DNA of 64,000 nucleotides from Myxococcota bacterium (GCA_041687695.1 JAWLBL010000019.1:1-64000); one strand, 5' to 3'. Positions 27,799-49,218 are shown, numbered from the stretch's first letter. Notes: generated by a model from the letters alone, not told the origin. Made by a program: numbers and translations.

Positions 27799-28137
27799 AT
27801 GACCATGGAAACGAAGGGCGGAAAGAAGCTTCCGACGATCAAGCGGTCGGCAGGGGCTTTTCTGTCGGCCGAAGAGGAGCGGATCACGCAGAAGCAGGCG
27901 GACCACCTCGCCGGCTATCTGACGATGGCGGGCAGCGATCTGCCGCAGTCCGGTGACCTGTACGCGCAGCACTGCTCGCACGCGTCGCACGGCTCGCACG
28001 GCTCCCACGGGTCGCACGGCTCCCACGGGTCGCACGGCTCCCACGGGTCGCACGGCTCGCACGGATCCCACGGCTCGCACGGGTCCCACGGGTCACACGG
28101 ATCCCACGGCTCGCACGGGTCGCACGGGAGCTGGTGA
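27799..28137 (+). CDS. His-Xaa-Ser repeat RiPP precursor peptide (HxsA-like), 57-aa leader plus (HxS)18-W core
   Basis: GGAGG upstream of ATG 27799 (alternative ATG 27805); ...DLYAQ-HCS-HAS-(HGS)16-W; directly upstream of radical SAM genes. Confidence 0.88.
   Translation: MTMETKGGKKLPTIKRSAGAFLSAEEERITQKQADHLAGYLTMAGSDLPQSGDLYAQHCSHASHGSHGSHGSHGSHGSHGSHGSHGSHGSHGSHGSHGSHGSHGSHGSHGSW
27970..28131 (+). repeat. 18 x 9-bp coding tandem repeat (mostly CAC-GGN-TCN)
   Basis: 162 bp; the 16 HGS units differ only synonymously (GGC/GGG/GGA; TCG/TCC/TCA/AGC). Confidence 0.95.
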
Positions 28138-28172
28138 GCCCGCGCGGCGCCCCTCGCGGGCGCGAGTAGGCC

Positions 28173-29582
28173 ATGAACCAGCCGCGGACCGAGCAGTTCA
28201 CGACCTGGACCCAGGACTTCGCCGAGCGCCTGAACGCCGCGGCGGGGGCGCTGCTGGGGTTCGATGGGGGCCGGGTCGTGGTCTCGCCGAGGGCGGACGC
28301 GCGCCCCGGGCTGCTCGGGCGGCTGGTCGTGTTCGTCGAGCTGCCGGACGGGGCGTCGGTCGGCCTCGAGCTGAGTGAGGTCGTCCCCGGCCGGTCGACG
28401 TGGCTGTCCCATCACGGGCTCGGCGTGTCCTACCGGCGCGGACGCGACGGCGCCGATCCGATGACGCAGCCGGCCGCGCGACGCTTCCTCGACGGTGTCC
28501 GGCAGCGCGTGACGTCGCTCACGCCCGAAGCGCTGGCCCGGTCGGTGGCCGGGTTCATCCGGGCGCTCGAGGCCGCTGAGCGCGGCCGCGAGGTCGGCGA
28601 CTGGATGTACCGGCAGCTGTCGATGGGCATCGACGGGCACTACGGGACCCTGCGCCTGGGCTTTCGGTGCAACCAGGACTGCGGGTTCTGCTGGCAGTCA
28701 CGCACCTGGCCCGAGCCCGAGCTCGACGTGTTCATGCGGTGGCTGGACGAGATGGCGGCCGCCGGCGTGGGAGAGCTGACCGTCACGGGCGGCGAGCCGA
28801 CCCTGTACAAGGGCCTGCCCCAGCTGCTCGAGCGCGCGATCCGCGTCCACGGGATGCGGGTGCAGCTGCAGACCAACGCGATCCGGCTGCGAAAGGCCGC
28901 GTTCGTGCAGCAGCTGGTCGACACGGGGCTCGAGTGGCTGTTCGTCTCGCTGCACAGCCCGGACCCGACGGTCTCGGACCGGATGACCCGGGCCCCCGGG
29001 ACGTGGCAGGGGACGGTCGCCGGGGTCGAGCAGGCCCTCGCGCACGGGCTGCGCGTGCAGCTCAACTGCGTGGTCGAGCGGGCCAACCTGGCGCAGCTGC
29101 GCGATCACGCCCGGTTCGTCGTCGAGCGCTTCGTCCGGCCCACCCCGAACAACCCGATCGTGTCGGTCACCTACTCGAACCCGTGCTCTTACTACGACGC
29201 GTCGCTGTGGCAGGACGCCGTGGCGCCGCTGGACGAGGTGGGGCCCGAGGTGCGCGCCGCCACGGCGATCCTGGCCGAGGCGGGGGTCGCCGTCGACGTG
29301 GTCGGCTCCTCGTGCGGCTTCCCGCCGTGCGTGTTCCGAGAGGCGCCCGAGTTCATCGTGTGGGCGGACCGCGCCGAGTTCGACACGATGGACGTGTCGG
29401 GGCGCTTCTTCCCGCCCGAGTGCGACGGGTGCGCGGTGCGCGACCGGTGCCTGGGCGTGCGCCGCGAGTACTACGAGCTGCGGGGCGGGGCGGGGCTGCG
29501 GCCGTTCGACAGCGTGCCCGAGGAGGCGCGCGAGCACAGCGCGCTGGGGGCCATGTTCGCGGCCGAGGCCCGGTCGGCGTGA
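28173..29582 (+). CDS. Radical SAM peptide maturase 1 with a roughly 150-aa N-terminal extension
   Basis: CNQDCGFC, TGGEPT, QTN; C-terminal PPC...CDGCAVRDRCLG. Confidence 0.92.
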   Translation: MNQPRTEQFTTWTQDFAERLNAAAGALLGFDGGRVVVSPRADARPGLLGRLVVFVELPDGASVGLELSEVVPGRSTWLSHHGLGVSYRRGRDGADPMTQPAARRFLDGVRQRVTSLTPEALARSVAGFIRALEAAERGREVGDWMYRQLSMGIDGHYGTLRLGFRCNQDCGFCWQSRTWPEPELDVFMRWLDEMAAAGVGELTVTGGEPTLYKGLPQLLERAIRVHGMRVQLQTNAIRLRKAAFVQQLVDTGLEWLFVSLHSPDPTVSDRMTRAPGTWQGTVAGVEQALAHGLRVQLNCVVERANLAQLRDHARFVVERFVRPTPNNPIVSVTYSNPCSYYDASLWQDAVAPLDEVGPEVRAATAILAEAGVAVDVVGSSCGFPPCVFREAPEFIVWADRAEFDTMDVSGRFFPPECDGCAVRDRCLGVRREYYELRGGAGLRPFDSVPEEAREHSALGAMFAAEARSA

Positions 29583-30487
29583 GCGCGCCGGCGTCCCAGG
29601 GGTGGCGCTGGCTGGAGCTGACGCTGGACTACCGGTGCAACCTGCGCTGCGTGGGCTGCCGGGCCTGCGAGGACACCGGCGAGGCCATGGACCTGCGTGA
29701 GATCGCGGGCCGCCTCGAGGCGGGGCGGCGGCAGGGCATCTCGCGGCTGTGGCTGGGCGGCGGCGAGCCGACGCTGCGCGACGACCTGCCGCGAGTGGTC
29801 GCGGCGGCGCGGCGCATGGGGTACCGCGAGGTGCTGGTGCAGACCAACGGGCTGCGCTTGAGCTACGCGCGGTACCTGGACGCGTTGGTCGCGGCCGGGC
29901 TCACCGACGTCAGCGTGAACGTCAAGAGCGCGCAGGCCGACGTCCACGATCGGCTCTCGGGGCGGCCTGGCGCCCTGGCGCTGCTCGAGCAGGGGCTGGA
30001 GGCCGCCCGAGAGCGCGGACTGGCGCTGCACGCCGACGTCCTGCTGACGCGCTCGACGGCGCCGCAGCTGGTCGAGACCGTCGAACGGTTCGCGGCGCTG
30101 GGGGTGACGCGCTTTCTGCTGTGGCTGCTGTCGGCCAGCGACGTCGCCGACGGGGCGGTCGACGCCGAGATGCCGCACCTGTCCGAGGTGGGGCCGCAGG
30201 TGATCCGGGCGGCGGAGCGCGCCGAGGCGCTGGGCGCTCGGCTACGGAGCCTCCACACGCCGCCGTGCGTGCTGGGCGATCGGGCGGACGTGTACCTGCC
30301 CTCGGCCGAGCTTCGGATGCTGGTGGCCAACCCGGGGCAGGCGCCGTTTCCGCTCGAGCGCTCGCCCATGGAGGGAGGGGCCTGGGTGGCGGCCTGCGAG
30401 GCGTGCGCGGCGCGGGCGCGCTGCGGGGGCCCGCGCGCGGACTACCTGGCCCGGTTCGGCGCGGGCGAGCTGGTCGCGATCCGCTGA
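29579..30487 (+). CDS. Radical SAM peptide maturase 2
   Basis: GTG overlapping the upstream TGA; CNLRCVGC, GGGEPT, QTNG; PPC...CEACAARARCGG. Confidence 0.9.
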   Translation: MSAPASQGWRWLELTLDYRCNLRCVGCRACEDTGEAMDLREIAGRLEAGRRQGISRLWLGGGEPTLRDDLPRVVAAARRMGYREVLVQTNGLRLSYARYLDALVAAGLTDVSVNVKSAQADVHDRLSGRPGALALLEQGLEAARERGLALHADVLLTRSTAPQLVETVERFAALGVTRFLLWLLSASDVADGAVDAEMPHLSEVGPQVIRAAERAEALGARLRSLHTPPCVLGDRADVYLPSAELRMLVANPGQAPFPLERSPMEGGAWVAACEACAARARCGGPRADYLARFGAGELVAIR

Positions 30488-30494
30488 GCGGGGG

Positions 30495-32876
30495 TCAGGG
30501 CTCGGGGGTCTCGAGCTGGGCCGTGGCCACCCGCAGGGGCACGCCGAGGCGGGTCGTCTCGCCGGACCGCAGGGGCGTGAGCGGCTTGTCGAGATCCTCG
30601 GGGTCGATGACCCAGGGCGGCTCGGGGACCTTGTCGAGCTCGTAGAAGCCGCCGCAGAAGATGGCGTGCGGGCAGCCGTGGCACACGGGCTTCCGGACGC
30701 GCCGCTCGGCCAGGTACTCGGCCAGGTTCACGTCCTCGTTGTTCACGAAGATCATGTGGCGCGAGAGCTTGCCGAGGTCGCCCGTCATCCAGCGCTCGTA
30801 GCCGGGCATGAAGCAGAAGGGCAGGTTGATGATCTGCAGCTTCATGCGCTCGTGCCAGCGGTCGATGACGCCCATGGCGATGTCGGCGGCGGCCTGGGTG
30901 TCCGGCGCGATGTGGCTGGTCGCGCGGCCGAAGGGCGTCAGGAACTGGATGTTCAGCCAGCGCAGCCCCAGATCCCAGGCGAGCTGGGCGACGTCCTCGA
31001 GGCGCTTGAAGTTGCCCTTGGTGATGGTGATGTTCATGCCCAGGTCGACGCCGGCCGGGGCGTGGGCCAGGCAGTTGCGGATGCCCTGGACCGACTGCTC
31101 GAAGGCCTCGGCGACGCCGACCTGCTGGGCGTGGCTCTTGGCGTCGGGGCCGTGGATCGAGAAGAGGAGCGTCGTCAGGCCCGAGCGGACGAGCTTGCTG
31201 GCGTACTCGTCGTAGGCGCACAGGCGCCCGTTGGTCGTGACGTTGATGCGGTCGTAGCCGATGCGGCGGGCGTACTTGACGAGCGGGACCAGCTCGGGGT
31301 TGAGCGTGGGCTCGCCGCCGTCGAAGTCGACCATGTGCACGCCCTGGGCGCGGTAGCGGTCGAGGTGCTCGCGCTGGCGGGTCGGGTGGCCGTCGAACTG
31401 GGTGCGGGTGCCGACGGCGCAGAAGGTGCAGTGGTTGTTGCAGACGTAGGTGACGTTGAGGATGACCTTCTGCGGCGCCCGCATGGCCTCGAGGCGCTGG
31501 TCCAGCGTCCACTTGAAGCGGCCGAGGGTCTCGGCGTCGACCAGGGCGCCGGGTTGGCTGGGGCGCGTCTGGAACAGGGGGCCCCAGTCGCTGACCGCCG
31601 GGAGGGGGCCGGCCTCGGCGAGCTGCGTGCCGGGCAGGGGCGTCGCGAACTGGACGGCCGGGTAGGCGCCGAAGCGCTCGTAGAGGTCGAGGGCGAACTC
31701 GAGCGTCAGGTTGATCTCGGTCGCCGTCTCGCCCGGCAAGCCGATGATGTAATGGATCATCAGCGGGACGCCGGCCTCGTGGGCGCTCTGGGCGGCGCGG
31801 ACGATGGCGTTCAGATCGAGGCGCTTTCGGACGATCTCGTCGAGGACGCGCTGGACGCCGCTCTCGGCGCTGACGCTGACCGTCGAGACGAGGCCGCGCA
31901 TCAGGGCGAAGTGGGCGGGCTCGAGGTAGTCGGCCCGCATGCCGTTGGGGCAGTCGAAGCGGACGCCGAGGGCGTGGACGGTCTCGAGGAAGGTGTCCCA
32001 GTGGCGCTCGTTGACGTTGATGAGCTCGTCGATGGCCTCGAGGCGGGTGGCGCCGTGGTCGCGGACGAGGGTGGTCAGGTAGGCGCGCAGGCGCTCGGGC
32101 GAGTAGCGGCGCTGGGTCTTGGGGGCGCCGGGGTCGCGGCCCGGGTTCGAGCTGCAGTGCGTGCAGACGAAGGGGCAGCCGCGCGAGGTGACCAGCGGGA
32201 GCGTGCGGCCGTCGATGGGGAAGGCCCAGGGGCCGCGGCCGAGGTTGCCGACGACGCGGGCCGAGAAGCGGTCGCGGGCGTCGAGGTCGACGAGATCCCA
32301 GGCCGGGAAGGGCAGGGCGTCGAGGCTGGGCGGCGAGACGCCGCGGTGGGTGCCCTCGGGACGCTGGCCGCGGGACACCAGGGCGTCGAGCAGCGCGGGG
32401 ACCGTGACCTCGGCCTCGTACTTCACCCAGGCGGCGGCCTCGGGGTAGCTGGCCAGGACGTCGGGGCCGTGGGCTTCGACGTAGTGCTGGCCCGACTGGT
32501 AGCAGTCCGCCAGGAGGACCGGGGCGGCGGGGAAGGCGTCGGCCAGGCCGGCGAGCAGCTCGCCGAGGACGTCGTCGCGCGCGGGTGGGCGGTGGAAGGG
32601 CGTGTAGGCCACCACGACCAGGTCGGGGGTCGGGCCGGCCGTGGCGGCGGCCAGCACCTCGGAGGTCGGGGCGCCGAGGTGGGCGCGTCCGTCCGGGCGC
32701 CAGGCGAGGGTCGAGCCGGGCAGCGCGTAGGCGTCGACGAGCGTCACGGCGGCGCCGCGTTCTCGTAGCACCGACGCCACCTGCACGGCGCCGAGGTCCG
32801 CCAGATATGGATAGTCGATGAAGTCCCGTGCTATCGTCACGGGCGGATGGATGATGATGACGCGCGGACCCGACAT
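30495..32876 (-). CDS. Cobalamin-binding (class B-like) radical SAM fused to a second radical SAM domain (maturase 3)
   Basis: N-terminal HPP...LG..VA..L...VDA B12-domain-like start; TSRGCPFVCTHC, SAESG, IIGLPGET; second motif CNNHCTFC, DGGEPT, TTNG; PFC...CHGCPHAIFCGG. TATGCT lies 6 nt upstream of the ATG. Confidence 0.88.
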   Translation of the reverse strand: MSGPRVIIIHPPVTIARDFIDYPYLADLGAVQVASVLRERGAAVTLVDAYALPGSTLAWRPDGRAHLGAPTSEVLAAATAGPTPDLVVVAYTPFHRPPARDDVLGELLAGLADAFPAAPVLLADCYQSGQHYVEAHGPDVLASYPEAAAWVKYEAEVTVPALLDALVSRGQRPEGTHRGVSPPSLDALPFPAWDLVDLDARDRFSARVVGNLGRGPWAFPIDGRTLPLVTSRGCPFVCTHCSSNPGRDPGAPKTQRRYSPERLRAYLTTLVRDHGATRLEAIDELINVNERHWDTFLETVHALGVRFDCPNGMRADYLEPAHFALMRGLVSTVSVSAESGVQRVLDEIVRKRLDLNAIVRAAQSAHEAGVPLMIHYIIGLPGETATEINLTLEFALDLYERFGAYPAVQFATPLPGTQLAEAGPLPAVSDWGPLFQTRPSQPGALVDAETLGRFKWTLDQRLEAMRAPQKVILNVTYVCNNHCTFCAVGTRTQFDGHPTRQREHLDRYRAQGVHMVDFDGGEPTLNPELVPLVKYARRIGYDRINVTTNGRLCAYDEYASKLVRSGLTTLLFSIHGPDAKSHAQQVGVAEAFEQSVQGIRNCLAHAPAGVDLGMNITITKGNFKRLEDVAQLAWDLGLRWLNIQFLTPFGRATSHIAPDTQAAADIAMGVIDRWHERMKLQIINLPFCFMPGYERWMTGDLGKLSRHMIFVNNEDVNLAEYLAERRVRKPVCHGCPHAIFCGGFYELDKVPEPPWVIDPEDLDKPLTPLRSGETTRLGVPLRVATAQLETPEP

Positions 32877-32947
32877 GAGGGCAGCATAGACGGTCCGACG
32901 CTGCGCGTCCAAGGCGGGCGACCGCGGGACACGCGACGGGGGCGACG

Positions 32948-34801
32948 ATGACGGGTGTGGCGGCCACGAGGCCGACGGCGGAAGGCGGTCACGCCGTCCC
33001 GGTGATGGCGGAGACGCGGGCCGTCCACGAGGAGGCCGCGCACGAGCGCCGCAACTGGGTGCGGCTCACCTTCGACTGCAACAACCGGTGCATCTTCTGC
33101 CTGGACTCGGACTCGCTCGACGGCGACATCCGCGACCGCGAGGACATCCGGCGGCAGATCGTCGAGGGGCGCGACAAGGGGGCGACGCGCCTCATCCTGT
33201 CGGGCGGCGAGCCGACGATCCACCCGCGGTTCATCGAGTTCGTCCGCCTGGGCAAGCGGCTGGGCTACCGCAAGGTGCAGACCGTCACCAACGGACGGCT
33301 GTTCGCCTACCCCGAGTTCCTGCGCAAGGCGCTCGACGCGGGCCTCGACGAGATCACGTTCTCGCTGCACGGTCCCAACGCGCGCGTCCACGACGCGCTG
33401 GTCGGCGTCAAGGGCGCCTGGGAGCAGGAGGTCGAGGGCCTGCGCAACGCGCTGGCCGACGGACGTCCGGTCGTCAACATCGACATGGTCATCAACCGCG
33501 GCAACGTGCGGCACCTGCCCGAGATGATGCGGCTGTACACGCAGATGGGCGTGCGCGAGTTCGATCTGCTGCAGGTCGTCCCGTTCGGGCGCGCGTTCAC
33601 CGAGGGGCGCGAGACCCTGTTCTACGACCTCGAGGAGGCGCGGCCCTACCTGCTCGAGGCGTTCGCCTACGCGCGCAAGCCCGGGATGCACATCTGGCTC
33701 AACCGGTTCCCGCCGCAGCACCTCGAGGGCTTCGAGGACCTCATCCAGGACCCGTACAAGCTCAACGACGAGGTGCGGGGGCGCAAGGAGCAGTTCGAGC
33801 GGCTGCTCGACGCGGGCGTGCCGCTGGACTGCCGCGAGCCGGCGCGTTGCAAGCACTGCTACCTCGAGCCGCTGTGCGACACGCTGGACGAGGTCCGCGA
33901 GGTGGCGGCCGAGGCGCGCTTCGAGGTGCTGCGCGTCGACCCGACGTTCGAGGCGACGTTGCCGCCGGAGATCGGTGGGGATCCGGCCAGCGCGAAGTGG
34001 ATCGAGGCCCAGGAGCGCATGCAGGCCGAGGCGGCGGCGAGCGGCGAGGGCGAGGCGGGGCGGCGGTCGCGCATGGGGCTGCCCATCGTGACGGTGCGGC
34101 CGCCGGCGCCGGCGGTCAGCCTGCCCGAGCTCGCGGCGCGGGCCGGGGCGCGCGCGCTGTGGGTGGTGGCCGCCGATCTGGGGGCGGCGCTGGCCGAGGC
34201 CGAGCGGTTCCCCGGGCTCGCGGAGCTGGAGCTGGAGCTGGCGTCGTACGCGGGGCTGGCCGAGGCGCTCGGCGACGGCGACCGCCTGGGAGACCGGCGG
34301 CTGGTGCGGGCGCTGGCGGCCGACGCTGCCCAGGCGGCCGAGCTGCTGGCCGTCCCGGGGGCCTTCGAGGTCGCGCTGGCGCTGACCAAGGAGAGCGCCG
34401 CGTGGGTGTTGGGGCTCGAGGCGGCGCCGGCGCGGCTGGTGCTGCGACAGCCGACCTACGAGCGCGTCACCGAGGCGCTCGAGCGCGACGTCGAGCCGGC
34501 CTCGCTGTTCCCGCGGCTGCCGCCGGAGGTCCCGGTCGAGGGCGTGCCCCGGTGCATCTCGGGCCGCGCGCCGCGCCCGCGGCCGGCCGTGCTGGACGGG
34601 GCGATGACGGCGCCGTCGGGGCGTCTCGAGATCTTCCGGTACGCGCGGCGCTTCATCGCGTCGCGCTTCGTGAGCAAGTCGCTGCGCTGCCGCGGCTGCG
34701 CCTTCTTCGACGCCTGCGAGGGGGTGCACGTGAACTACGCGCGCGCGCACGGCTACGGCGTCCTGCAGCCGGTCCCGGCGACCGAAGGGGGCACGTCGTG
34801 A
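32948..34801 (+). CDS. Radical SAM peptide maturase 4 (long form)
   Basis: CNNRCIFC, SGGEPT, VTNG; internal DC...CKHCYLEPLC; terminal PRC...CRGCAFFDACEG. Start could be ATG 33005. Confidence 0.9.
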   Translation: MTGVAATRPTAEGGHAVPVMAETRAVHEEAAHERRNWVRLTFDCNNRCIFCLDSDSLDGDIRDREDIRRQIVEGRDKGATRLILSGGEPTIHPRFIEFVRLGKRLGYRKVQTVTNGRLFAYPEFLRKALDAGLDEITFSLHGPNARVHDALVGVKGAWEQEVEGLRNALADGRPVVNIDMVINRGNVRHLPEMMRLYTQMGVREFDLLQVVPFGRAFTEGRETLFYDLEEARPYLLEAFAYARKPGMHIWLNRFPPQHLEGFEDLIQDPYKLNDEVRGRKEQFERLLDAGVPLDCREPARCKHCYLEPLCDTLDEVREVAAEARFEVLRVDPTFEATLPPEIGGDPASAKWIEAQERMQAEAAASGEGEAGRRSRMGLPIVTVRPPAPAVSLPELAARAGARALWVVAADLGAALAEAERFPGLAELELELASYAGLAEALGDGDRLGDRRLVRALAADAAQAAELLAVPGAFEVALALTKESAAWVLGLEAAPARLVLRQPTYERVTEALERDVEPASLFPRLPPEVPVEGVPRCISGRAPRPRPAVLDGAMTAPSGRLEIFRYARRFIASRFVSKSLRCRGCAFFDACEGVHVNYARAHGYGVLQPVPATEGGTS

Positions 34802-35856
34802 CGACCGCCGAGGCCAGCGCCCTCGGGCGCGAAGAGGTCGTCCAGCGCATCCAGACCCGGCAGGAGCGCATCCACGTCGCCATCGGCCCGGTCTGCAACA
34901 ACAACTGCATCTTCTGCATGGAGGAGGACCGCGTCGCGCGCGAGGTCGTCAACGGCTCGATGACCCCCGAGCGCGTGCGCCGCATCCTCGAGGCGAGCGC
35001 CGGGTCCGAGGAGGTGTGCTTCACCTCGGGCGAGCCGACGATGGTCGCCGAGCTGCCGCGCTACGCCCGCTGGGCGCGGCGCCTCGGCTACCGGCGCGTC
35101 AGCGTGATGACCAACGGCCGGCGCCTGTCGCACGCGCCCTACGTCGAGCACCTCGTCAAGGCCGGCATCAACTTCTTCTATGTCTCGATCCACGGCCACA
35201 CGCAAAAGCTCCACAGCGGCCTCGTTCGCGAGCCGGCGGCCTTCGAGCAGACGGTCGCCGGGCTCGACAACGTCTCCGCCTACAAGCGCGAGGGCGTGAC
35301 CCTGCACACCTCGACCGTGGTCACGCGGCGCAACGCCCCCTACTTCGCCGAGATCTATCGGTTCTTGCGCTCGCACGGCGTCGATCAGGTGGTCTTCAAC
35401 GTCATGCAGGCCAACGGCCGGGCCCACACCTACTTCGAGCAGCTCTTCCCGAAGTACACCGACATCGCCGCCGGCTTCGCCGCGTTCCTGAAGGACGAGC
35501 CCGAGCAGCCCGCGCAGGCCTTCCTGGTCGACATCCCGCTGTGCACGACCACGAACCTGCCGGACTTCAACCGCGGCTACGTCGAGCGCTACCTGCACTA
35601 CGAGCCCAAGGGGTTCCAGCAGCTCGAGCTCGGCGAGCGCGACGCGCCGGCGCCGGACGACGACCTCGTCGCGGTGACGCGCGCCGACCTCGACCGCAGC
35701 GAGCGCCTCAAGCGCCCCGAGTGCGCGAGCTGCCGATACGAGCCCGCCTGCGAAGGGGTCTGGAAGAACTACCTCGCCCGGTACGGATGGGACGAGATGG
35801 TCCCGGTCCCGCACCCGGCCGCGCCCGACGACGCCGCGAGGGCCACGCCTACGTGA
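34798..35856 (+). CDS. Radical SAM peptide maturase 5
   Basis: GTGA overlap; CNNNCIFC, TSGEPT, MTNG; PLC...CASCRYEPACEG. Confidence 0.9.
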   Translation: MTTAEASALGREEVVQRIQTRQERIHVAIGPVCNNNCIFCMEEDRVAREVVNGSMTPERVRRILEASAGSEEVCFTSGEPTMVAELPRYARWARRLGYRRVSVMTNGRRLSHAPYVEHLVKAGINFFYVSIHGHTQKLHSGLVREPAAFEQTVAGLDNVSAYKREGVTLHTSTVVTRRNAPYFAEIYRFLRSHGVDQVVFNVMQANGRAHTYFEQLFPKYTDIAAGFAAFLKDEPEQPAQAFLVDIPLCTTTNLPDFNRGYVERYLHYEPKGFQQLELGERDAPAPDDDLVAVTRADLDRSERLKRPECASCRYEPACEGVWKNYLARYGWDEMVPVPHPAAPDDAARATPT

Positions 35857-37652
35857 CGACGTCGGCTCGCGAGCGAGCGCCTCGGGTCGCAAGCGAGGTG
35901 GCCGTCGTGGCCGTCGAGGGGCCGTGCAACGACCGCTGCGTCGTCTGTCCCGTGCCCGAGCCACGACGCGTGGCGCCCGCCCAACCGGCCGCCGTCGCGG
36001 CCAGCCTCGCGCGCGCGGTCGCCCAAGGGGCCGACTCGGTCGTGTTCGCGGGCGGCGAGCCGACCCTGCTGCCGCGCTTCGTGGAGCACGTGCGGGCCGC
36101 GCGTCAAGCGGGCCTGGCGGTCGGCGTCGTCACCAACGGGCGCATGTTCGCCTACGCGCGGCTCGCGCGGGCCGCCGCGCGCGCGGGCCTCGGCTCCGCG
36201 ACGGTGGCGGTCCACGGGCCCGACGCCGCGACCCACCAGGCCGTCTCCCGCTCCGAGGGCTTCGACCAGGCGCTCGAGGGGGCGCGCCACCTGGCCGCCT
36301 GCGGCGTCGAGGTGACGCTGCGGCTGACCCTGCTCGCGGCGTCGCTCGACCGACTCGCCGACCTGCCGGCGCTGCTCGATCGGACGGGCGCCGCCCGGCT
36401 GGCGCTCGAGCTGCCCGATGCGGTCGAGGAGGGGGTCGAAGTCGCGCGGCGCGACGCGGCCGAGGTGGCCGTCGCGGCGCTCGTCGACCGGTTCGCGCGG
36501 TCGAGGCTGTCGGGGCGGCTCGACGTCGCGGCGCTGCCTCCGTGCTGGACCGGCGGCGCCAGCGGCGGCGTCGCGCTCCGGCCAGGCGCGGTGTTCGCGG
36601 CCCCGTGCGCCGACTGCTCGCTCCGCAGCCGCTGCCCCGGGCTGCCTGCGGCGATGGTCGACGCGCTCGGAGACGCGGCGGTGGCCCCGTTCCGCGTGGT
36701 CCGCTCGAACTCCTTCAACCTCGTGCCCCGGCAGCGGCTGGACTGGCCGGCCGGCACGCCGTGCCCCTTGCTGGTCGGGGCGCCCGCGCCGCGCTCGAGC
36801 GCCGACCGCGCGATCCACCTGCGCTCGGACGGCGCGCTGGTTCGCCACGAGACGACGACCGGCGACTTCGTCGACGCCGAGCTGCGGCGGGTCCTGCGCG
36901 ACTCGGGCCAGCTCTACGTCGACGTCAGCGACAAGGACGCGCCCGACGACTTCGCCGCCGACCTGCGCAAGCTGGTCGTGGCCACCGAGTGCGACGAGTG
37001 CCCTCGCCAACGCCGCTGCGGCCGCGCGTGGCAGGTCGACCAGCGCGATGTCTTCGGCGCCGACGACGCCCTGGTCGCGCAACGCATCGCGACGCTGAGC
37101 GGCGACGTGCTGGACGTGGGCTGCGGGCATGGCCCCTACGGCGAGCTGCTGGCGCCCTTGGCGAGCGGCGGCGCGCTGCGCTACGTCGGCCTCGAGCCCG
37201 ACGAGGCCCGGGTCCGCGAGCTGCGGGCGCGGTGGCCCTGGGCGACCCTGATCGCGGCCACCGCCGAGGAGGCACGCTTCGCGGAGGCGTCGTTCGATCA
37301 CGTGCTGATCCTGAGGAGCTACAACCACCTCGCGGCGCCTCGCGCGGTGCTGGCCGCCGTCACGCGAGCCCTGAGGCCGGGCGGGACGCTGCTGGTCGTC
37401 GACAACGAGGCCTTCGGGTTGGTCCGGACCCGCGAGGCGGCGGCGCGGGCCGAGGCCGGGTCGGCCGAGCACGAGCACTACCGCAACGACGGCGCCGCCG
37501 AGGCGCTCGAGGCGATGCGCGGGCTGCCGCTGACGCTGCTCGCGCGCGCCGACGTGGGGCCGGCGACCAGCAACCAGTGGCTGCTCCATCTGCGCAAGCA
37601 CGATGGCGACGCGGCCGCGCCTTCCTTGCTCCGGGGCGAGTCGGTGGTGTGA
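35853..37652 (+). CDS. Radical SAM / class I SAM-dependent methyltransferase fusion (maturase 6)
   Basis: GTGA overlap; CNDRCVVC, GGEPT, VTNG; CADCSLRSRCPG and CDECPRQRRCG; C-terminal VLDVGCGHG, FDHV, LRPGG methyltransferase motifs. Confidence 0.88.
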   Translation: MTTSARERAPRVASEVAVVAVEGPCNDRCVVCPVPEPRRVAPAQPAAVAASLARAVAQGADSVVFAGGEPTLLPRFVEHVRAARQAGLAVGVVTNGRMFAYARLARAAARAGLGSATVAVHGPDAATHQAVSRSEGFDQALEGARHLAACGVEVTLRLTLLAASLDRLADLPALLDRTGAARLALELPDAVEEGVEVARRDAAEVAVAALVDRFARSRLSGRLDVAALPPCWTGGASGGVALRPGAVFAAPCADCSLRSRCPGLPAAMVDALGDAAVAPFRVVRSNSFNLVPRQRLDWPAGTPCPLLVGAPAPRSSADRAIHLRSDGALVRHETTTGDFVDAELRRVLRDSGQLYVDVSDKDAPDDFAADLRKLVVATECDECPRQRRCGRAWQVDQRDVFGADDALVAQRIATLSGDVLDVGCGHGPYGELLAPLASGGALRYVGLEPDEARVRELRARWPWATLIAATAEEARFAEASFDHVLILRSYNHLAAPRAVLAAVTRALRPGGTLLVVDNEAFGLVRTREAAARAEAGSAEHEHYRNDGAAEALEAMRGLPLTLLARADVGPATSNQWLLHLRKHDGDAAAPSLLRGESVV

Positions 37653-38924: not shown

Positions 38925-38984
38925 GGCGGGCCAGGAGGGCGGGGCCGAGGTGACGCCCGGCGGGACGGTCCGCGGGCGGGCGGG

Positions 38985-39893: not shown

Positions 39894-39912
39894 TCGGGGG
39901 CTCCGGACGGGG

Positions 39913-40512
39913 TTAGAGCGGCCGCAGCCACAGGCCGCGCACCGAGCGGTCGGGGTTGAACACCATCAAGAGGCGGAAGCGGACGTCGCTGCGGCTCATG
40001 CGAAGCAGCACCTTCGCGGCCGGCATGTCGTCCTCCTCGTCGTCGATCCGGCTCAACCAGGCATCCATGACCAGCCCCGGCGGCCCGTGATGGGCGACGA
40101 CGCCGCGGATGATGGCGCCCAGCTCGCCCGGCGGCAGGGTGGCGGCCAGCGACGGGTCGAAGAGGGCGTGGACCTGCTCGTAGCGGCCGGCGAAGAGGTC
40201 GAGGGTCGCGTCGAGGGCGAGGCGGGCCTCGGGCGTGGCGGTCCGAAGGGCCGAGTAGCCGGGCAGGAGGCGGTCGGCCTCGGAGAGCGCCTCGGGGGTG
40301 GTGGGGGCCAGCTGCGCGCTCGTCGGCGGGGGCCCCGTCGGCGGTTGGGGCGTCGCGACCGGCGCCGGAGCCGGTGTCGGCGCCGGCGCGGCGGCCACCG
40401 GGGCCGGATCACAGGGGCCGCTCGGTGGCTCGGTCGCGGCCTGGCAGGCGGAGAGCGCTAGCGGCAAGACCGCGAGGCAGGCGGCGAGGCGGCGGCGTGA
40501 GGACGAGGACAT
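39913..40512 (-). CDS. Lipoprotein with DUF3887-like C-terminal domain
   Basis: GGAGAG RBS; lipobox LSAC; Pro linker; F.G.Y...F...L...G...GLWLRP pattern. Confidence 0.6.
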   Translation of the reverse strand: MSSSSRRRLAACLAVLPLALSACQAATEPPSGPCDPAPVAAAPAPTPAPAPVATPQPPTGPPPTSAQLAPTTPEALSEADRLLPGYSALRTATPEARLALDATLDLFAGRYEQVHALFDPSLAATLPPGELGAIIRGVVAHHGPPGLVMDAWLSRIDDEEDDMPAAKVLLRMSRSDVRFRLLMVFNPDRSVRGLWLRPL

Positions 40513-40616
40513 CGGCGGCTCTCCCGGCGTGGCGCGGGCGTGAGCCGCATCCATCGGCGTCGACCGTCATAGCATCGGGGCGACGGGAACGCACGGTCCA
40601 CGCGTCCGCGCACGGC

Positions 40617-41480
40617 TCAGTCCAGATCCCCCAGCCCGATGGCCTTGGCGAGGCGGCTGTCGAGGAGGCGATCGGGCAGCACCTTGCGGGCCCAGAGCAG
40701 GGCGGCCGTCCCGCGTGAGACGGCGTAGCGGGCCTTGGGACGCGGCGTCGTCAGGGCGCGGTGGATGACCTCGGCGACGTCCTGCGGGGTGGCGGCCCGG
40801 CGCATGAGCTCCTGGAAGGTCTCGGTCAGCAGCGTGGCGACGTTCTCGTAGGCGCTCCCCGGCGCGTGGTCGAACAGATCGGCGGCCGACAGGGCCGGCC
40901 GGGCGGCGGTGACGAGGCCGGCGCGGACGAGCCCGGGCTCGATGAGGACGACGTCGACGCCGAAGACCCCCAGCTCGAGCCGCAGCGCGTCGCACAGGCC
41001 CTCGAGGGCGAACTGGCTGGCGCTGTAGGCGCCCGACAGCGGCATGGCGATCCGGCCGGCGGCGCTCGAGATGCACAGGATGACGCCGCGGCGCTGCGCG
41101 CGAAACACGGGCGTCATCGCCTGGATGAGGCGCAGGGGGCCGAAGAAGTTGGCGTCGAAGAGATCGCGCACGGTGGCGTGGGGGGTCTCCTCGATGGCGC
41201 CGAAGCGGCCCATGCCGCCCGCGTGGACGAGGGTGTCGACGTGGCCGAAGAGCGTGCGTGCGCGTTCGATGGCGGCGCGGCAGGCCGCGTCGCTCGACAG
41301 ATCGGTCGCGTAGACCTCGACCAGGCCGCCGCGGGCGGTCTCGCGGGGCAGATCGGAGAGGCCGTCGAGGCTGGGCGCGCACGCGAGGACCTGCATGCCG
41401 CGCTCGGCGAGCAGCAGGGCGGTGGCGCGGCCCACGCCGCGGTGGGCGTCGGTGAGCAGGACGGCGCGGCGCGGCGGCAT
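40617..41480 (-). CDS. SDR-family oxidoreductase with degenerate motifs
   Basis: Overall SDR pattern (ISSAAG, IEPG), but TDAHRGVG replaces TGxxxGxG and YSASQ replaces YxxxK. Confidence 0.85.
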   Translation of the reverse strand: MPPRRAVLLTDAHRGVGRATALLLAERGMQVLACAPSLDGLSDLPRETARGGLVEVYATDLSSDAACRAAIERARTLFGHVDTLVHAGGMGRFGAIEETPHATVRDLFDANFFGPLRLIQAMTPVFRAQRRGVILCISSAAGRIAMPLSGAYSASQFALEGLCDALRLELGVFGVDVVLIEPGLVRAGLVTAARPALSAADLFDHAPGSAYENVATLLTETFQELMRRAATPQDVAEVIHRALTTPRPKARYAVSRGTAALLWARKVLPDRLLDSRLAKAIGLGDLD

Positions 41481-43547: not shown

Positions 43548-44063
43548 TCAGCGCCGGAAGTAGTCGACGTGATCGATGGGGTCGAACTGGGCGAGGCGCT
43601 CCTGGCGGCCGAGCAGGGGCTGGCCACCGGCGAGGCGCTCCTCGGCCCCGGCGAGCTGCCGGGCGACCTGACGGACGAGGGCGACCTCGTCGTCGGGCGT
43701 GCGCCGCTGGCCGTCGCCGCCGTCGTTCATCAGGAACAGGTCGACGCGACCGGTGCTGGCGATGGCGCGCGAGTTCGGCTCGGCCGCGCAGATGCCGATG
43801 TTCGCCTGACGGCCGCTGGCCGCGTGGCGCGCCACGACGCGCAGGGCCCCCGCCTCGACGCCCGTGACCTCTTCGACGGCCCAGCCGTCCTCGAGATCGA
43901 GCCCACCCGGCAGGGCAGCTCGCACTTCGGCGGTCAGCGCGGCGCCGGGCGCAGCGGCGCGCGCCGCGCTGGGCAGGTTGGCCAGCACGAGGCCGGCGGC
44001 GGACGCGGCGATGAAGGTTCGCCGGTCGAGCCCGTTACTCTGGTCCTTTTGGCCGGACATCAC
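43548..44063 (-). CDS. Small Tat-exported hypothetical protein
   Basis: DRRTFIAASAAGLVLA twin-arginine signal with an ARA cleavage site; divergent from the second rSAM operon. Confidence 0.75.
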   Translation of the reverse strand: MMSGQKDQSNGLDRRTFIAASAAGLVLANLPSAARAAAPGAALTAEVRAALPGGLDLEDGWAVEEVTGVEAGALRVVARHAASGRQANIGICAAEPNSRAIASTGRVDLFLMNDGGDGQRRTPDDEVALVRQVARQLAGAEERLAGGQPLLGRQERLAQFDPIDHVDYFRR

Positions 44064-44331: not shown

Positions 44332-45090
44332 TTGGCGCAGGGGCTGACAGAGGCGCCGATCGTCAGGAGCGGATACGGGTGCAACAGCGCCTGCCGCTTC
44401 TGTGATCAGGGCGATTGGCGGACCACCCGTGGGGACCGCGCGGCCGACGAGGTCGCCGACGCGGCCGTTCGCGCGGGGCAGGGCGGCGGCGTGGTCGTCT
44501 TCTCGGGCGGCGAGGTGACGATGCGGCCCGAGCTCGCCGAGTGGGTCAGGCTCGCCCGAGGCGCCGGCGCCAAGCGCGTCCTCGTCCAGACCAACGGCCG
44601 CATGCTCGCCTACCCGGGGGTCGCGCAGCAGCTCCGCGACGCCGGCGTCGACGTGTTCGCCGTGGCGCTGCACGGCCACGTGGCCGAGCTGCACGACTGG
44701 CTGACCCGCACGGAGGGCAGCTTCGAGCAGGCTGTCAAGGGCGTGCGGCGGGCGCGGCAGGCCGGCGCGTCGATCATCGTCAACACGGTCGTCACGCGGC
44801 CGGGCTATCGGCACCTGGGCGAGATGGCGGCGCTCCTGTTCGGCGCGCTGGGCGCCTCGGGCTGGCGCCTCATCTGGCCGCGTCCCGAGGGCGAGCTGGC
44901 CGGCGGCCCCGCCGGCCTCACCCCCGAGCCCACGCTGGTGGCGCCGCACGTGGCGCGCGCCCGCGCCATCGCCGAGCGCGCCGGCAAGCGCCTGTGGCTC
45001 GAGCTGCCGGAGGCCGCGCTGGCCCCGGCGGCCTCTCCGGGCCCCGCACCCGAACCGGCCGAGGAGTCCTCCGATGTCCGTGTCGCCTGA
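44332..45090 (+). CDS. Radical SAM protein 7 (short, no C-terminal auxiliary Cys motif)
   Basis: TTG after AGGGAG; CNSACRFC, SGGEVT, QTNG, LHG...HD.LT...GSF. Confidence 0.82.
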   Translation: MAQGLTEAPIVRSGYGCNSACRFCDQGDWRTTRGDRAADEVADAAVRAGQGGGVVVFSGGEVTMRPELAEWVRLARGAGAKRVLVQTNGRMLAYPGVAQQLRDAGVDVFAVALHGHVAELHDWLTRTEGSFEQAVKGVRRARQAGASIIVNTVVTRPGYRHLGEMAALLFGALGASGWRLIWPRPEGELAGGPAGLTPEPTLVAPHVARARAIAERAGKRLWLELPEAALAPAASPGPAPEPAEESSDVRVA

Positions 45091-46816
45091 GACGAGCGCC
45101 CCGCGCCCCGGACCGCGCGCGGTCATCGACGAGGAGATGCAGGCCGAGCTGGCCCGCGCCCTCGAGGTCAAGGACCTGACCAAGGAGGCCGCCGTCAAGC
45201 ACGCGCGGCACTGGGTCCGCCTGACGCGCCTGTGCAACCAGCGCTGCATCTTCTGCCTCGACTCGTGGAACCACAACGGGACCTACGTCGATACGCAGCA
45301 GCTGATGCAGTACATCGATCTGGGCAAGGCGCTGGGCCGCGAGCGGCTCATCCTGTCGGGCGGCGAGCCGACCATCCACCCGGACTACGTCAAGCTGCTC
45401 AAGCACGGCAAGAAGGCCGGCTACGACTGGATCCAGACCGTCACCAACGGGATGATGTTCGCCTACCCCGAGTTCGCGCGCCGCTGCATCCAGGCGGGGC
45501 TGAACGAGGTGACCATCTCGATCCACGGCCACACGCCCAAGCTGCAGGACCGCCTGGTCGGCGTCCCCGGCGCCTTCGACAAGGCCATCGAGGGCATCAA
45601 GAACATCCAGGCCCTGTCGGGCGGGCGGACGGTCGTCAACATCGACGTCGTCATCAACAAGCAGAACGTGCCGCACCTGCGCGAGATCATCGATCTGTTC
45701 CGCGGGATGGGCATCCACGAGTTCGATCTGCTGTACATCGTCCCCTTCGGGCGCGGGTTCTCCGAGTACCGGTCGCAGCTGTACTTCGACCTGGGCGAGC
45801 ACTACGACGATCTCCAGCGGGCGTTCGAGGTCTCGAAGGAGCCGGGGGTCTACATCTGGACCAACCGGCTGCCGGTCGAATACCTCGAGGGCTACGAGCA
45901 CCTCATCCAGGACCCGCACAAGCTGCACAGCGAGGTCCAGGGCGGGTTGCACAACTTCCAGGGCTACCTGGAGATGGGCACGCCGCCGGACTGTCACGGC
46001 GAGCGGTGCGGCCACTGCTTCCTGAAGGGCCTGTGCCACGATCAGATGTTCGAGTACCGGCAGCGGCTCGAGGCGCGGGCGTTCGACCGGGTGCGGGTCG
46101 ATCTCGACGTGCCGGTGCCCAGCACGCGGGCGGCCATCGCCCTGGACACGCAGCGCCCGCGCGTCGTGCACGTGCAGGGGGCCGACGCCGCGGCGATTCG
46201 CGAGTGGATCGAGGGGCATCCGTACCGTGACGAGGCGTACGCGCCCGAGCTGGTGGCCGAGCCGCGCGACGAGGCGACCAGCGCCGAGCTGATGGACGAC
46301 GCGGGCCTGGCGCGGGTGGTCGCCAACACGCCGGCGGCGCTCGAGCGCTTGCTGGCCGCGGCGCCCGAGGGCCGGGGGCCGGCGGTCGAGGCGCGGCTGA
46401 CCGCCGAGACGGCGCGCTGGCTGCAGGACAACGAGCCCCTGGCGCGCCCCTGGATCGAGGCCGACCGCCTGGTCGGGCACCTGCCGAACTTCGAGTACGT
46501 CTCGGGCGTGCGCGACAACGGCGTCGGCGGCGACGAGCTGCGCGCCCTGGCGGCGATGGGGCTGCGGCTGATGAACGTCGCGCCGTGCATCGGCGGGGCC
46601 AAGGCCGAGCCCGGCGCCCACCACGCCCTGTCGCGCGACATGCTGGACGACAAGGGGCGGCTGTCGGTCACCCCGTACGTGCAGCGCTACATCGAGGGCG
46701 AGTACTACAAGAAGAGCCTGCGCTGCCGCGGCTGCGCGCTGACCGAGACGTGCCGCGGGATGCACATCAACTTCCTGCGCGCCCACGGGTTCGCCCAGCT
46801 CCAGCCGGTCGGGTGA
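45074..46816 (+). CDS. Radical SAM peptide maturase 8 (paralog of maturase 4)
   Basis: GAGGAG RBS; CNQRCIFC, SGGEPT; DC...CGHCFLKGLC; KSLRCRGCALTETCRG. Confidence 0.92.
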   Translation: MSVSPETSAPRPGPRAVIDEEMQAELARALEVKDLTKEAAVKHARHWVRLTRLCNQRCIFCLDSWNHNGTYVDTQQLMQYIDLGKALGRERLILSGGEPTIHPDYVKLLKHGKKAGYDWIQTVTNGMMFAYPEFARRCIQAGLNEVTISIHGHTPKLQDRLVGVPGAFDKAIEGIKNIQALSGGRTVVNIDVVINKQNVPHLREIIDLFRGMGIHEFDLLYIVPFGRGFSEYRSQLYFDLGEHYDDLQRAFEVSKEPGVYIWTNRLPVEYLEGYEHLIQDPHKLHSEVQGGLHNFQGYLEMGTPPDCHGERCGHCFLKGLCHDQMFEYRQRLEARAFDRVRVDLDVPVPSTRAAIALDTQRPRVVHVQGADAAAIREWIEGHPYRDEAYAPELVAEPRDEATSAELMDDAGLARVVANTPAALERLLAAAPEGRGPAVEARLTAETARWLQDNEPLARPWIEADRLVGHLPNFEYVSGVRDNGVGGDELRALAAMGLRLMNVAPCIGGAKAEPGAHHALSRDMLDDKGRLSVTPYVQRYIEGEYYKKSLRCRGCALTETCRGMHINFLRAHGFAQLQPVG

Positions 46817-46822
46817 CCGCGG

Positions 46823-48013
46823 ATGGCGAACATCGGCTACATCCAGGTCGTCCGGCACTGCAACCACTTCTGCGGGTTCTGCTCGAACCCCACCACGCCC
46901 TACGTCCACACCTTCGAGACGATGAAGGTGCTGGTCGACGACTTCGTCCGGCGCGGCTACTTCGGCGTCATCCTGACCGGCGGCGAGCCGACCCTGCACC
47001 CCGAGCTGCCGCGCATCGCCGGCTACGCGCGCGACCAGGGGCTGCACGTGCGCATGATCACCAACGGGTGGCGGCTGGCGGACCCCGACTTCGCCCGCGA
47101 GCTGGCCGAGGCGGGCCTGCAGCACGTGCACGTGTCGGTCTACTCGGTGCGACCCGAGGTCGAGGCGCAGCTGCGAGGGCTGCCGAAGACGCTCGACAAG
47201 GCCTTCGCGGCCGTCGACAACGCCTACCGCTTCGGGCTGACCGTCGACGTCAACTGCGTCATCAATAGGCTCAACGCCGACCACCTCGACGAGAACATCC
47301 GCTACTGGATGACCCACCACCCGCAGGTCCGCCACTTCGTGTGGAACAACCTGGACCCGTCGATGGGGCGCGCCGAGGTCAACCAGGACCAGTACACGCC
47401 GCGGCTGGCCGACTTCGAGGCGTCGCTGTATCGCGCGCTGCGCCTGCTGCACGGGTCGGGGCGCACCTTCCGCGTCGAGCGCGTGCCGCTGTGTTACATG
47501 GCCGAGTTCGCCTGGGCCAGCACCGAGACGCGCAAGATCGTCAAGGGCGAAGAGCGCATCGTGCACTTCCTGGACGCCAAGCAGACGGTGCGCCAGACCG
47601 ACTGGGGGCACCACTACGACAGCGCCTGCGACGTGTGCTCGGTGCGCGGCATCTGCGGCGGCCTGTACGACAAGGGCGGGGCCTACGACCCGGCCGAGCT
47701 GGCGCCGCTGTTCGTGTCGCCCGACGCCATCGTCGAGCACATCATCACCGACCCGAGCGACCCCAGCTATCGGCTGCGGACGCTGGCCGAGTGGAAGGCC
47801 GACTTCGAGGCGCGGCGGCAGGCGCAGGTGAAGGCCGCCGCCGAGGCCGAGGCGCGGCGCAGCGTCGCGGGGCTGTCGGTCGGGGTCGTGACCGAGGAGG
47901 GGCAGCGCCTGTTCGAGAAGAAGCGGAAGGCCGAGGCCAAGATGGCGGCGCGGCTGGGCGTCGCGCAGGAGCGCCAGGATCGGCCGGACGCGGCGGGCGA
48001 GGGGGCGCCGTGA
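46823..48013 (+). CDS. Radical SAM peptide maturase 9
   Basis: CNHFCGFC, TGGEPT, ITNG; PLC...CDVCSVRGICGG. Confidence 0.92.
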   Translation: MANIGYIQVVRHCNHFCGFCSNPTTPYVHTFETMKVLVDDFVRRGYFGVILTGGEPTLHPELPRIAGYARDQGLHVRMITNGWRLADPDFARELAEAGLQHVHVSVYSVRPEVEAQLRGLPKTLDKAFAAVDNAYRFGLTVDVNCVINRLNADHLDENIRYWMTHHPQVRHFVWNNLDPSMGRAEVNQDQYTPRLADFEASLYRALRLLHGSGRTFRVERVPLCYMAEFAWASTETRKIVKGEERIVHFLDAKQTVRQTDWGHHYDSACDVCSVRGICGGLYDKGGAYDPAELAPLFVSPDAIVEHIITDPSDPSYRLRTLAEWKADFEARRQAQVKAAAEAEARRSVAGLSVGVVTEEGQRLFEKKRKAEAKMAARLGVAQERQDRPDAAGEGAP

Positions 48014-49218
48014 GCGCGCTGGGGGCCGGGCTGCTGATGCCCGACGGCGGCGGAGACGGGGCGACGCGCCGGCTGGTCTTGCGCCTGGTCAAGAAGCTGG
48101 CTCGGGATCTGATGACGCTGCCGCCCGCGGCGGTGCCGGCCGAGCTGGGCGGGGCCTTCGCCCAGGCGGCGCAGCTGGTGCGGCGGCTGGGCGAGGCGAA
48201 CGCGCGCGGGCTGTTCGCGGTGCTGCGGCGGCCGCAGGTGCACGTGCTGCTGACGTGCGCGTGGCGGGCCATCGAGGACGGCGACGTGCTCGACGCGCGG
48301 GCGCGGACGACGGCGCTGCTGGTGCAGCTGGGGTTCGAACTGGCGCTGGAGGGGGCGCTGCCCGAGGGCGCGGCGCTGCGGGTGCCCGTGCCGGCGCCCG
48401 ACGGGGTGCTGCGGTCGCCGAGCCGGCGGCTCGAGGTGGCGCTGCCCCGGCACGCGGGCCTGCGCTTCGAAAACGGCTTCGTCACGCTGGTGGGGCCCGG
48501 GACGCGGGTGCCGCTGGCGGGGCCGCCCAGCGAGCGGTTCCCCGAGGTGGCCCCCGGCGCGGTGTTGGCGCTGGTGGACAACAACCCGATCAGCGACTTC
48601 GAGGCGCACCCGGACAAGCAGGGCAACGCGCTGTCGCTGGGTGACGCGCCGGCGTCGGCCTGGACGGCGTCCATCGCCGAGGGGCTGGCCCTGGTGGGGC
48701 GGTGGCTGCCCGATCTGCGCGAGGAGATGGGGCTCGTCCTGCAGCAGCTGGTCCCGGTCGGCACCGACGACGAGAAGCACCTGTCGGCCAGCTACCGAGA
48801 GGCCATCGGCACCGTCTACCTGACGCTGCACCCGCGCCTGATGACCATGACCGAGGCGCTGATCCACGAGTATCAGCACAACAAGGTCAACATGCTGTTC
48901 CACGTGGACCCGGTGCTGCACAACGCCTACTGGCCGCTGTACACGTCGCCGGTGCGGCCGGACCCGCGGCCGCTGCATGGGGTGCTGCTGGCGGCGCACG
49001 CGTTCCTCCCTGTGGCCGAGCTGTATCGGCGCATGATGGAGGCGGGCGTCCCCGAGGCGACGCGGCCCGATTTCGTGGCGCGGGCGCGCCAGATCGTGCA
49101 GAAGAACGCGAGCGCGATGGCGACGCTCGAGGCGCACGCCGAGCCGACCGACGCCGGCCGCGTGCTGCTGGCCGAGATGACCGAGATGAACCGGAGGCAC
49201 CTCGCGTGGATGCCCTGA
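48010..49218 (+). CDS. HEXXH-motif peptide-modification enzyme (alphaKG-HExxH type, putative beta-hydroxylase)
   Basis: GTGA overlap; SAS...GTVYL...EALIHEYQHNKV...SPVRPDPRPLHGVLLAAHAF family signature. Confidence 0.88.
   Translation: MSALGAGLLMPDGGGDGATRRLVLRLVKKLARDLMTLPPAAVPAELGGAFAQAAQLVRRLGEANARGLFAVLRRPQVHVLLTCAWRAIEDGDVLDARARTTALLVQLGFELALEGALPEGAALRVPVPAPDGVLRSPSRRLEVALPRHAGLRFENGFVTLVGPGTRVPLAGPPSERFPEVAPGAVLALVDNNPISDFEAHPDKQGNALSLGDAPASAWTASIAEGLALVGRWLPDLREEMGLVLQQLVPVGTDDEKHLSASYREAIGTVYLTLHPRLMTMTEALIHEYQHNKVNMLFHVDPVLHNAYWPLYTSPVRPDPRPLHGVLLAAHAFLPVAELYRRMMEAGVPEATRPDFVARARQIVQKNASAMATLEAHAEPTDAGRVLLAEMTEMNRRHLAWMP

Follow-up and report, generated by a model that had tools for sequence, protein, structure and literature searches.

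A type-4 His-Xaa-Ser peptide system with nine radical SAM genes in a Myxococcota genome

Why should one three-residue repeat need a dozen related iron-sulfur enzymes? The question is raised by a stretch of 64,000 nucleotides from a Myxococcota bacterium (GCA_041687695.1, JAWLBL010000019.1:1-64000), referred to here as the window, which is contig C19:1-64000 of a 7.97-Mb genome that is 99% complete. It encodes a precursor peptide with His-Xaa-Ser (HxS) repeats, nine radical S-adenosylmethionine (rSAM) proteins, numbered R1–R9 in coordinate order, and a HEXXH enzyme (Table 1). [quoted passage not shown] Judged by its model scores, the system belongs to the type-4 His-Xaa-Ser set of NCBIfam, which has been catalogued but not studied; such systems are common in Myxococcota and are usually dispersed along the chromosome. 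Uniqueness is not supported: curated models exist, the precursor model (HxsA4) scores above its cut-off in 125 of 401 genomes of the phylum, and HxsD and HxsB are encoded in trans. Our best overall explanation, to which we give a probability of about 0.5, is modular type-4 maturation of the peptide with tailoring, export and a role in the envelope. What is new here is the three-layer structure of the enzyme set, its link to oxygen, and a partner protein with a twin-arginine translocation (Tat) signal.

The NCBIfam type-4 models span three parts, namely the precursor HxsA4 (NF038313), the rSAM protein HxsC4 (NF038332) and an HxsD-like protein (NF038315), whose cut-offs are passed by the precursor, R5 and the gene at C19:93474-93722, respectively. 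The other eight rSAM proteins of the window and the Tat-signal protein pass no family-level model. We found no paper on HxsA4 or HxsC4 by name, subscription literature lying outside the search, and neither name occurs in the text of Li et al. (2026; PMC13128918).

The precursor has a leader with the motif LP-x-I-x-R...L-S-x-E-E and a core of HCS-HAS-(HGS)16-W, that is, the 18 HxS triplets counted in the first pass, followed by a terminal Trp. It is the sole open reading frame in the genome with at least three tandem HxS triplets. All 60 top-scoring HxsA4 loci that we fetched contain a real HxS array. Repeat number across 92 arrays has a median of 16 and a maximum of 64, so that the 18 repeats here are ordinary; precursors with 49–64 repeats occur in L088, L048 and L148/L151/L153. 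The HCS head is found in 78 of the 92 arrays, the remainder having HAS or being interrupted by gaps or contig ends. The sixteen HGS units here are encoded by seven different 9-mers, and over 1,622 repeat units from the fetched loci the first two positions of the His codons are invariant while the third is variable, which indicates that the repeat is maintained at the peptide level. The only Pfam match of the precursor is to Collagen (35.3 vs 27.2), which may reflect Gly periodicity and nothing else. A promoter scan was empty. Some arrays (22/92) end in HGQW in place of W, and the profiled genomes that have them lack R3 and the methyltransferase.

The association of these enzymes with the peptide was assessed by comparing 44 strongly precursor-positive genomes, taken across families, with 36 precursor-negative genomes (no HxsA4 match at E 1e-5), all from the phylum; genomes with weak matches were left out of both groups. 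Nine parts were profiled: R9, R4/R8, HxsB, R2, the methyltransferase half of R6, the Tat protein, R3, the HEXXH enzyme and HxsC4. The counts carry no P value because related genomes are not independent. HxsB is present in 43/44 positive and 5/36 negative genomes and the C-terminal half of R6 in 29/44 and 2/36; for HxsC4 the count is 20/44 against 1/36 and may be too low, five candidates having been scored per genome. The remaining counts are given in Table 1. None of the nine parts occurs in 31 of the 36 negative genomes, and orthologous rSAM sets are thus not commonly found without the precursor. The other five are metagenome-assembled genomes, 77–95% complete, in which no repeat was found; a His-Gly-Ser pattern at the DNA level gave no match in them, and it is a guess that their repeats may be unassembled. 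The core was not found in two positive genomes, G153 and G285. On contig C27 of G153, which is 98% complete, the precursor match adjoins a Tat gene; HxsB, R9 and R4 were not found in this genome.

Three layers can be distinguished: the core comprises HxsB, HxsD, R9 and R4/R8, a methylation module consists of R2, R3, R6 and HxsC4, and a module confined to aerobes contains the HEXXH enzyme and the Tat protein. The 26 R3-positive genomes among the 44 contain the methyltransferase in 26 cases, R2 in 25 and HxsC4 in 20, and all 26 HEXXH-positive genomes contain the Tat protein. R3 and the HEXXH enzyme vary independently, with both in 14 genomes, one alone in 12 and 12, and neither in six. All nine parts together are found in nine of the 44 genomes; the set in this genome is therefore full, not unique.

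Table 1. Features of the type-4 His-Xaa-Ser system; positions without a contig name are those of the window, and genome counts are precursor-positive versus precursor-negative.
Feature	Position	Strand	Evidence
HxsA4 precursor, 112 aa	27799..28137	+	NF038313, 128.6 bits vs cut-off 55; family alignment
R1, HxsC-clan rSAM with 150-aa N-terminal domain of unknown kind	28173..29582	+	Pfam/NCBIfam; auxiliary Cys motif
R2, HxsC-clan rSAM, methylation module	29579..30487	+	31/44 vs 2/36 genomes
R3, B12-binding-like and class-B-like rSAM fused to HxsC-clan rSAM, two CxxxCxxC	30495..32876	-	26/44 vs 1/36 genomes
R4, core HxsC-clan rSAM, second four-Cys motif in C-terminal half	32948..34801	+	R4/R8 in 42/44 vs 4/36 genomes; invariant Cys
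R5, HxsC4	34798..35856	+	NF038332, 545.3 bits vs cut-off 500; genome counts in text
R6, divergent HxsC-clan rSAM, Cys-bearing linker and class I SAM methyltransferase	35853..37652	+	PF04055 and PF08241
Tat-signal protein, unnamed family, 170 aa, divergent from R7	43551..44063	-	twin-Arg motif; 29/44 vs 2/36 genomes
R7, short HxsC-clan rSAM without auxiliary-cluster cysteines	44332..45090	+	alignment
R8, core HxsC-clan rSAM	45074..46816	+	clusters with same-order homologues, support 1.0
R9, most conserved HxsC-clan rSAM	46823..48013	+	42/44 vs 3/36 genomes
alphaKG-HExxH-type dioxygenase (HEYQH)	48010..49218	+	TIGR04267, 92.6 vs cut-off 40; 26/44 vs 3/36 genomes
HxsD-like	C19:93474-93722	-	NF038315, above curated cut-off
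HxsD	C19:93719-94240	-	TIGR03976, 72-74 vs cut-off 50
HxsB	C1:78712-80343	+	TIGR03978, 532 vs cut-off 370
Further rSAM genes	C12:76928-85449; C50:1873-2895; C19:162033-163721; C55:314-2504; C6:187289-188248		

Within the window, the genes lie in two blocks, the precursor with R1–R6 and R7–R9 with the HEXXH gene, separated by housekeeping genes; six rSAM genes do follow the precursor as had been described, with R3 on the minus strand, so that block 1 is not a single operon. This layout would suit a chance neighbourhood in which most of the rSAM proteins are unrelated to the peptide, as would the R9-anchored loci, 60 of 80 of which have no HxS array (20/80 have one, as have 7/22 HxsC4-anchored loci). 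Such an accident is, however, extremely unlikely in view of the co-occurrence at the genome level and of repeated adjacency in other arrangements. Physical linkage is loose, with HxsB in 30 of the 60 precursor-anchored loci; in the same-order genome G279 the precursor adjoins the Tat gene and R7-R8-R9-HEXXH, which ties the second block of the window to the peptide. Chance is ruled out for R2, R3, R4/R8, R5, R6, R9, the HEXXH gene and the Tat gene, R1 being the exception: it has just one close relative among the fetched loci and is, its position aside, the part most weakly tied to the system. The genes of the window thus very probably form one system with HxsA4, in agreement with the first-pass proposal that the rSAM and HEXXH enzymes belong with the precursor.

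All nine genes pass Pfam Radical_SAM, and the ten CxxxCxxC motifs reported earlier were recovered, with every gene retaining one. Coupling by GTGA overlaps was likewise found, at 29579, 34798, 35853 and 48010. R5 scores 545.3 on the HxsC4 model and the other eight 62–124; for these eight, HxsC or HxsC4 stands at or near the top of the match lists, far below cut-off. An alignment with two annotated canonical HxsC proteins shows shared core motifs and places the HxsC-type auxiliary motif P-x-C...CxxC-x4/5-C in R1, R2, R3, R5, R6 and R9. No window rSAM matches Pfam SPASM at E 0.01. R9 is 63–79% identical across 80 named loci, has cultured hosts in Minicystis rosea DSM 24000 and Polyangium fumosum DSM 14668, and is the best match in this genome of canonical HxsC (24.7% identity); the two patterns applied to viral contigs recovered no relative of R9. 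R7 orthologues stand before R8 or R9 in G279, G099, G159, G179, G289 and G249.

R4 and R8 are paralogues with 49.5% identity, both with the extra Cys set. R8 groups with homologues from its own order and on this clustering is the order's native copy, whereas the homologues with which R4 and R3 cluster come from other classes or from Polyangia-like records; block 1 may thus have been acquired, or may be an old paralogue set that was retained. An AU test on R3 was set aside, its group having been named once a tree had been seen and the two same-order rows not being sisters. GC3 is similar to that of the host, and there is no tRNA beside either block. Given the different ancestry of this pair, nine genes need not equal nine reactions. 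The C-terminal half of R4 was considered as a second, dead rSAM barrel, which is unsupported, the Cys motif alone being aligned (probability 6%); a single-sequence fold model of R4 has a pLDDT of 39. R3 matches the ApyD, AprD4 and B12_SAM models weakly (35–63 bits, far below cut-off), its nearest structure in the PDB is AprD4 (6fd2, E 1e-9), and it has no Pfam B12-binding match; we take its N-terminus to be B12-binding-like partly on the strength of familiar motifs.

The first pass recognised no HxsD-like gene. This is true of the window, but HxsD and an HxsD-like gene occur farther along this contig, some 44 kb beyond the HEXXH gene, and HxsB on another. Seven further related rSAM genes lie on C50, C12 (three), C19, C55 and C6, which brings the genome's total to as many as 17. 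Two of the seven have a degenerate first rSAM domain and one is fused to an oxidoreductase-like domain. Six have relatives that, in other genomes, lie close to precursors or to block-2 genes, the C6 gene having none, and in G099 and G159 the C12 set adjoins the Tat gene and R7-R8. The enzyme set far exceeds canonical HxsB/C/D, as had been proposed. Two copies of HxsB occur in G279, G165, G249, G009, G034, G224 and G359, which suggests two co-resident Hxs systems.

The obvious comparison is with the canonical HXS system. There, one SHRSS motif of HxsA receives +8 Da through HxsB/C/D, as a +C/-4H adduct whose structure is still open; HxsC binds HxsD, and periplasmic HxsA blocks entry of phage DNA (PMC13128918). 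Our system resembles it in having true HxsB and HxsD, in trans, in the HxS repeats that follow an A-Q/E-H junction, and in the rSAM domain plus single auxiliary Cys motif of HxsC. It differs in that paralogues of a clan with 21–27% identity to HxsC stand in the place of HxsC; in having 18 neutral repeats rather than five basic ones; in being spread over two contigs and three places on C19 rather than forming a four-gene operon D-B-C-A; and in the methylation, HEXXH and Tat parts, which are extras relative to TIGR03976–03979. The canonical set is 99.7% Pseudomonadota (PMC13128918). We conclude that the system is like HXS in its maturation; it falls outside the canonical family by its HxsC score, by the anatomy of its HxsA and by the arrangement of its genes.

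The neutral repeats, with His at each third residue and a conserved Cys, would also suit a peptide that binds or buffers Cu, Ni or Zn in the envelope, its modifications tuning 18 imidazoles and one Cys, with no phage role. The precursor is chromosomal and near-fixed in several families, in keeping with this, and Cys-rich MopE-type genes occur in 19 of 86 precursor loci and immediately upstream of the precursor here. Against this, MopE-type motifs are present in 43 of 370 20-kb windows of this genome regardless, no metal transporter or regulator recurs beside precursors, and His binds metal with no need of crosslinking. We regard the metal role as rather improbable.

A second comparison is with the triceptides (ChlB/ChlH; minviopeptin), in which an aromatic-X-Ser motif is modified; 18 H-x-S motifs occur here, and a His-Ser crosslink, from His C2 to Ser C-beta, is known from an H-A-S motif (PMC12912966). 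HxS peptides with uncharacterised rSAM proteins have been noted before (PMC9062424). Triceptide clusters, however, use one rSAM on few motifs, and the rSAM proteins here are not of the three-residue-cyclophane-forming (3-CyFE) family by model score: no 3-CyFE model is among the best 25 matches listed for any window rSAM. The suggestion of three-residue-cyclophane enzymes made in the first pass was thus not upheld, and poly-cyclophane chemistry rests on analogy. By that analogy, His-Ser crosslinking has, in our estimate, about an even chance.

The HEXXH gene was confirmed. Its product is a homologue of ChlH (8s5f, E 2e-6), with HExxH plus a downstream P-x-R-x-D-x-R-P motif. ChlH beta-hydroxylates His and Asp after cyclophane formation (PMC12636437). 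The gene is found in none of 11 genomes without heme-copper oxidase (COX1) and in 29 of 37 with it, as expected for an enzyme that uses O2; this genome has both TatC and COX1. Some HEXXH enzymes cleave the backbone oxidatively at small residues, Ala/Gly (PMC12636437), which would fit a peptide that serves as the starting material of a small molecule or a cofactor, as with PQQ or mycofactocin, its triplets or HCS head being crosslinked, tailored and excised. The variable repeat number fits this too, as do the up to 17 rSAM genes together with methyltransferase, dioxygenase and oxidoreductase-like partners. It is nevertheless quite improbable, given that no conserved peptidase or dependent enzyme family lies near precursors, that no HEXXH enzyme was detected in 18 of the 44 precursor-positive genomes, and that canonical HxsA acts as a protein.

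The earlier list of system genes overlooked the Tat-signal gene, whose most likely start is the ATG at 44060. A strict twin-Arg expression matches 33 of 42 members of the family in the fetched loci, and the 120 relatives listed are unnamed or annotated as 'hypothetical'. The predicted structure (pLDDT 88) could not be matched clearly to any fold, with a best E of 0.13 in Foldseek and a best Z of 6.1 (rmsd 4.1, 97 aligned). Two of the rSAM proteins, one on C12 and one on C55, also carry the domain as a fusion; in a comparison of 28 proteins they score E 2e-5 and 1e-4, with profile probabilities of 88% and 83% against <1% for controls. The N-terminal domain of R1 does not match it, and Atlas searches gave nothing usable for either.

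HxsA4 here has no signal peptide, the maximum 12-residue hydropathy of its leader being 0.82, against the 2.57 of an annotated HxsA2. The 26 leaders from Tat-positive genomes, among them that of this genome, all stay below 1.37. Of the 15 precursor-positive genomes without the Tat protein 13 had leaders, and 12 of these 13 have a signal-like hydrophobic segment (1.37–1.87), the exception being G285. The Tat protein and a signal-like leader segment of the precursor's own are thus complementary. Heterodimers in which one partner bears the signal are known to be exported by Tat (10.1101/2023.11.02.564894). HxsA4 could likewise leave the cell as a passenger of the Tat-signal protein, and we consider export of the product, by whichever route, somewhat more probable than retention. 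The leaders of L156, L159, L160, L166-L171 and L175-L180 share F-L-x-S/G-E-E-G-K-I-T-[RK]-x-Q, followed by a hydrophobic stretch; presumably they resemble Tat or prepilin-type signals.

The modular pathway that we favour would run as follows. HxsB, HxsD and HxsD-like, encoded in trans, together with R9 and R4/R8, which co-occur with the precursor, would engage the HxsA4 leader. Radical chemistry would then oxidise or crosslink the H-x-S triplets, by analogy most likely by joining an imidazole carbon with Ser C-beta and perhaps adding one carbon, as seen in the canonical HxsA adduct. The optional module of R3, R6, R2 and HxsC4 is predicted from its domains to add methyl or one-carbon units and, in aerobes, the HEXXH enzyme to hydroxylate the pre-cyclised peptide. 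Export would follow, through a signal-like leader of the precursor's own or, where the lineage resembles this one, as cargo carried by the Tat protein. The last and weakest step would yield a multivalent, His-rich polymer in the envelope, for which a first guess is a barrier to phage entry as in HXS. We consider this anti-phage role less likely than not, since the distribution is scattered, chromosomal and near-fixed and the repeats are neutral.

Several observations weigh against this pathway. No rSAM of the genome passes the canonical HxsC model TIGR03977 (best 91.5 vs 267.9), and none reaches a cyclophane-enzyme cut-off (HxsB: YhhB 60.7/445, AmcB 54.9/425, GrrM 48.8/310). The signal peptide, peptidoglycan-binding domain and basic residues on which HxsA depends are missing from HxsA4. 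No system gene lies in the fetched stretch of 24 of the 60 precursor-anchored loci, some of whose contigs are short. The complementary pattern of Tat protein and leader is confounded by kinship, by aerobiosis and by a Tat profile built from loci of aerobes. The neighbours are housekeeping genes, unlike a defence island, the precursor is near-fixed in some families (29/29, 18/19 and 6/6), and no conserved peptidase was seen near precursors. Finally, canonical HxsA showed one modified site and not one in each repeat (PMC13128918).

This last point fits an alternative with few sites and many subunits, in which the HxsC paralogues form a hetero-oligomeric machine with one or two catalytic subunits, the unique site is the AQ-HCS head or the terminal W, and the (HGS)n tail remains unmodified as a multivalent arm, polyproline-II-like in the manner of Gly-X-Y. 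The retention of the HCS head in arrays of up to 64 repeats agrees with this, as do the match to Collagen, if it is more than Gly periodicity, the lack of auxiliary cysteines in R7, and the degenerate rSAM domains of some paralogues elsewhere in the genome. We judge it unlikely: CxxxCxxC is retained in nine of nine window genes, and the modular gain and loss of components fits added reactions better than obligatory subunits.

The stepwise modular pathway also has a bolder form. Here the three-layer line of up to 17 rSAM genes would convert the repeat into successive His-Ser macrocycles, arranged as a ladder and methylated, with hydroxylation added in aerobes. The product would travel to the periplasm as a Tat passenger, be held by the Tat-type domain found in some enzymes, and form a standing barrier to incoming DNA. 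This is improbable as a whole; if true, it would mean a new RiPP architecture, together with a new module for binding the peptide and a new way of exporting RiPPs. HxS-repeat proteins have been unexplained for more than a decade. HxsA4 is short and uniform and has neither a signal peptide nor a folded domain; reconstitution, unsuccessful with canonical HxsA, may be easier for it, and the phyletic profile narrows the enzymes to a testable core (HxsA4, HxsB, HxsD, R9 and R4/R8) plus two add-on modules.

The interval between R6 and R7 (37674-43465) contains purC, a short-chain dehydrogenase/reductase and a ceramidase-like gene. At 37674-38924 (+), co-directional with R6, lies a gene for a 416-residue protein with a signal-like N-terminus and no family match, of which no relative was found in the fetched loci. 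Cys-rich lipoprotein-like genes are located at 23771-27589 (+), 50625-52142 (-) and 56385-59693 (+), two of them with PF11617; such MopE-type genes probably belong to the general background of myxobacteria. The PADLOC matches were limited to generic rSAM, methyltransferase, helicase and TPR models. A SNF2-family helicase at 5888-9073 (-) scores on the PADLOC DpdE/ZorD models, with no partner defence genes nearby, and tRNA-Pro and tRNA-Val are located at 9818-9894 and 10974-11048 (-), around IHF/HU and rplT genes.

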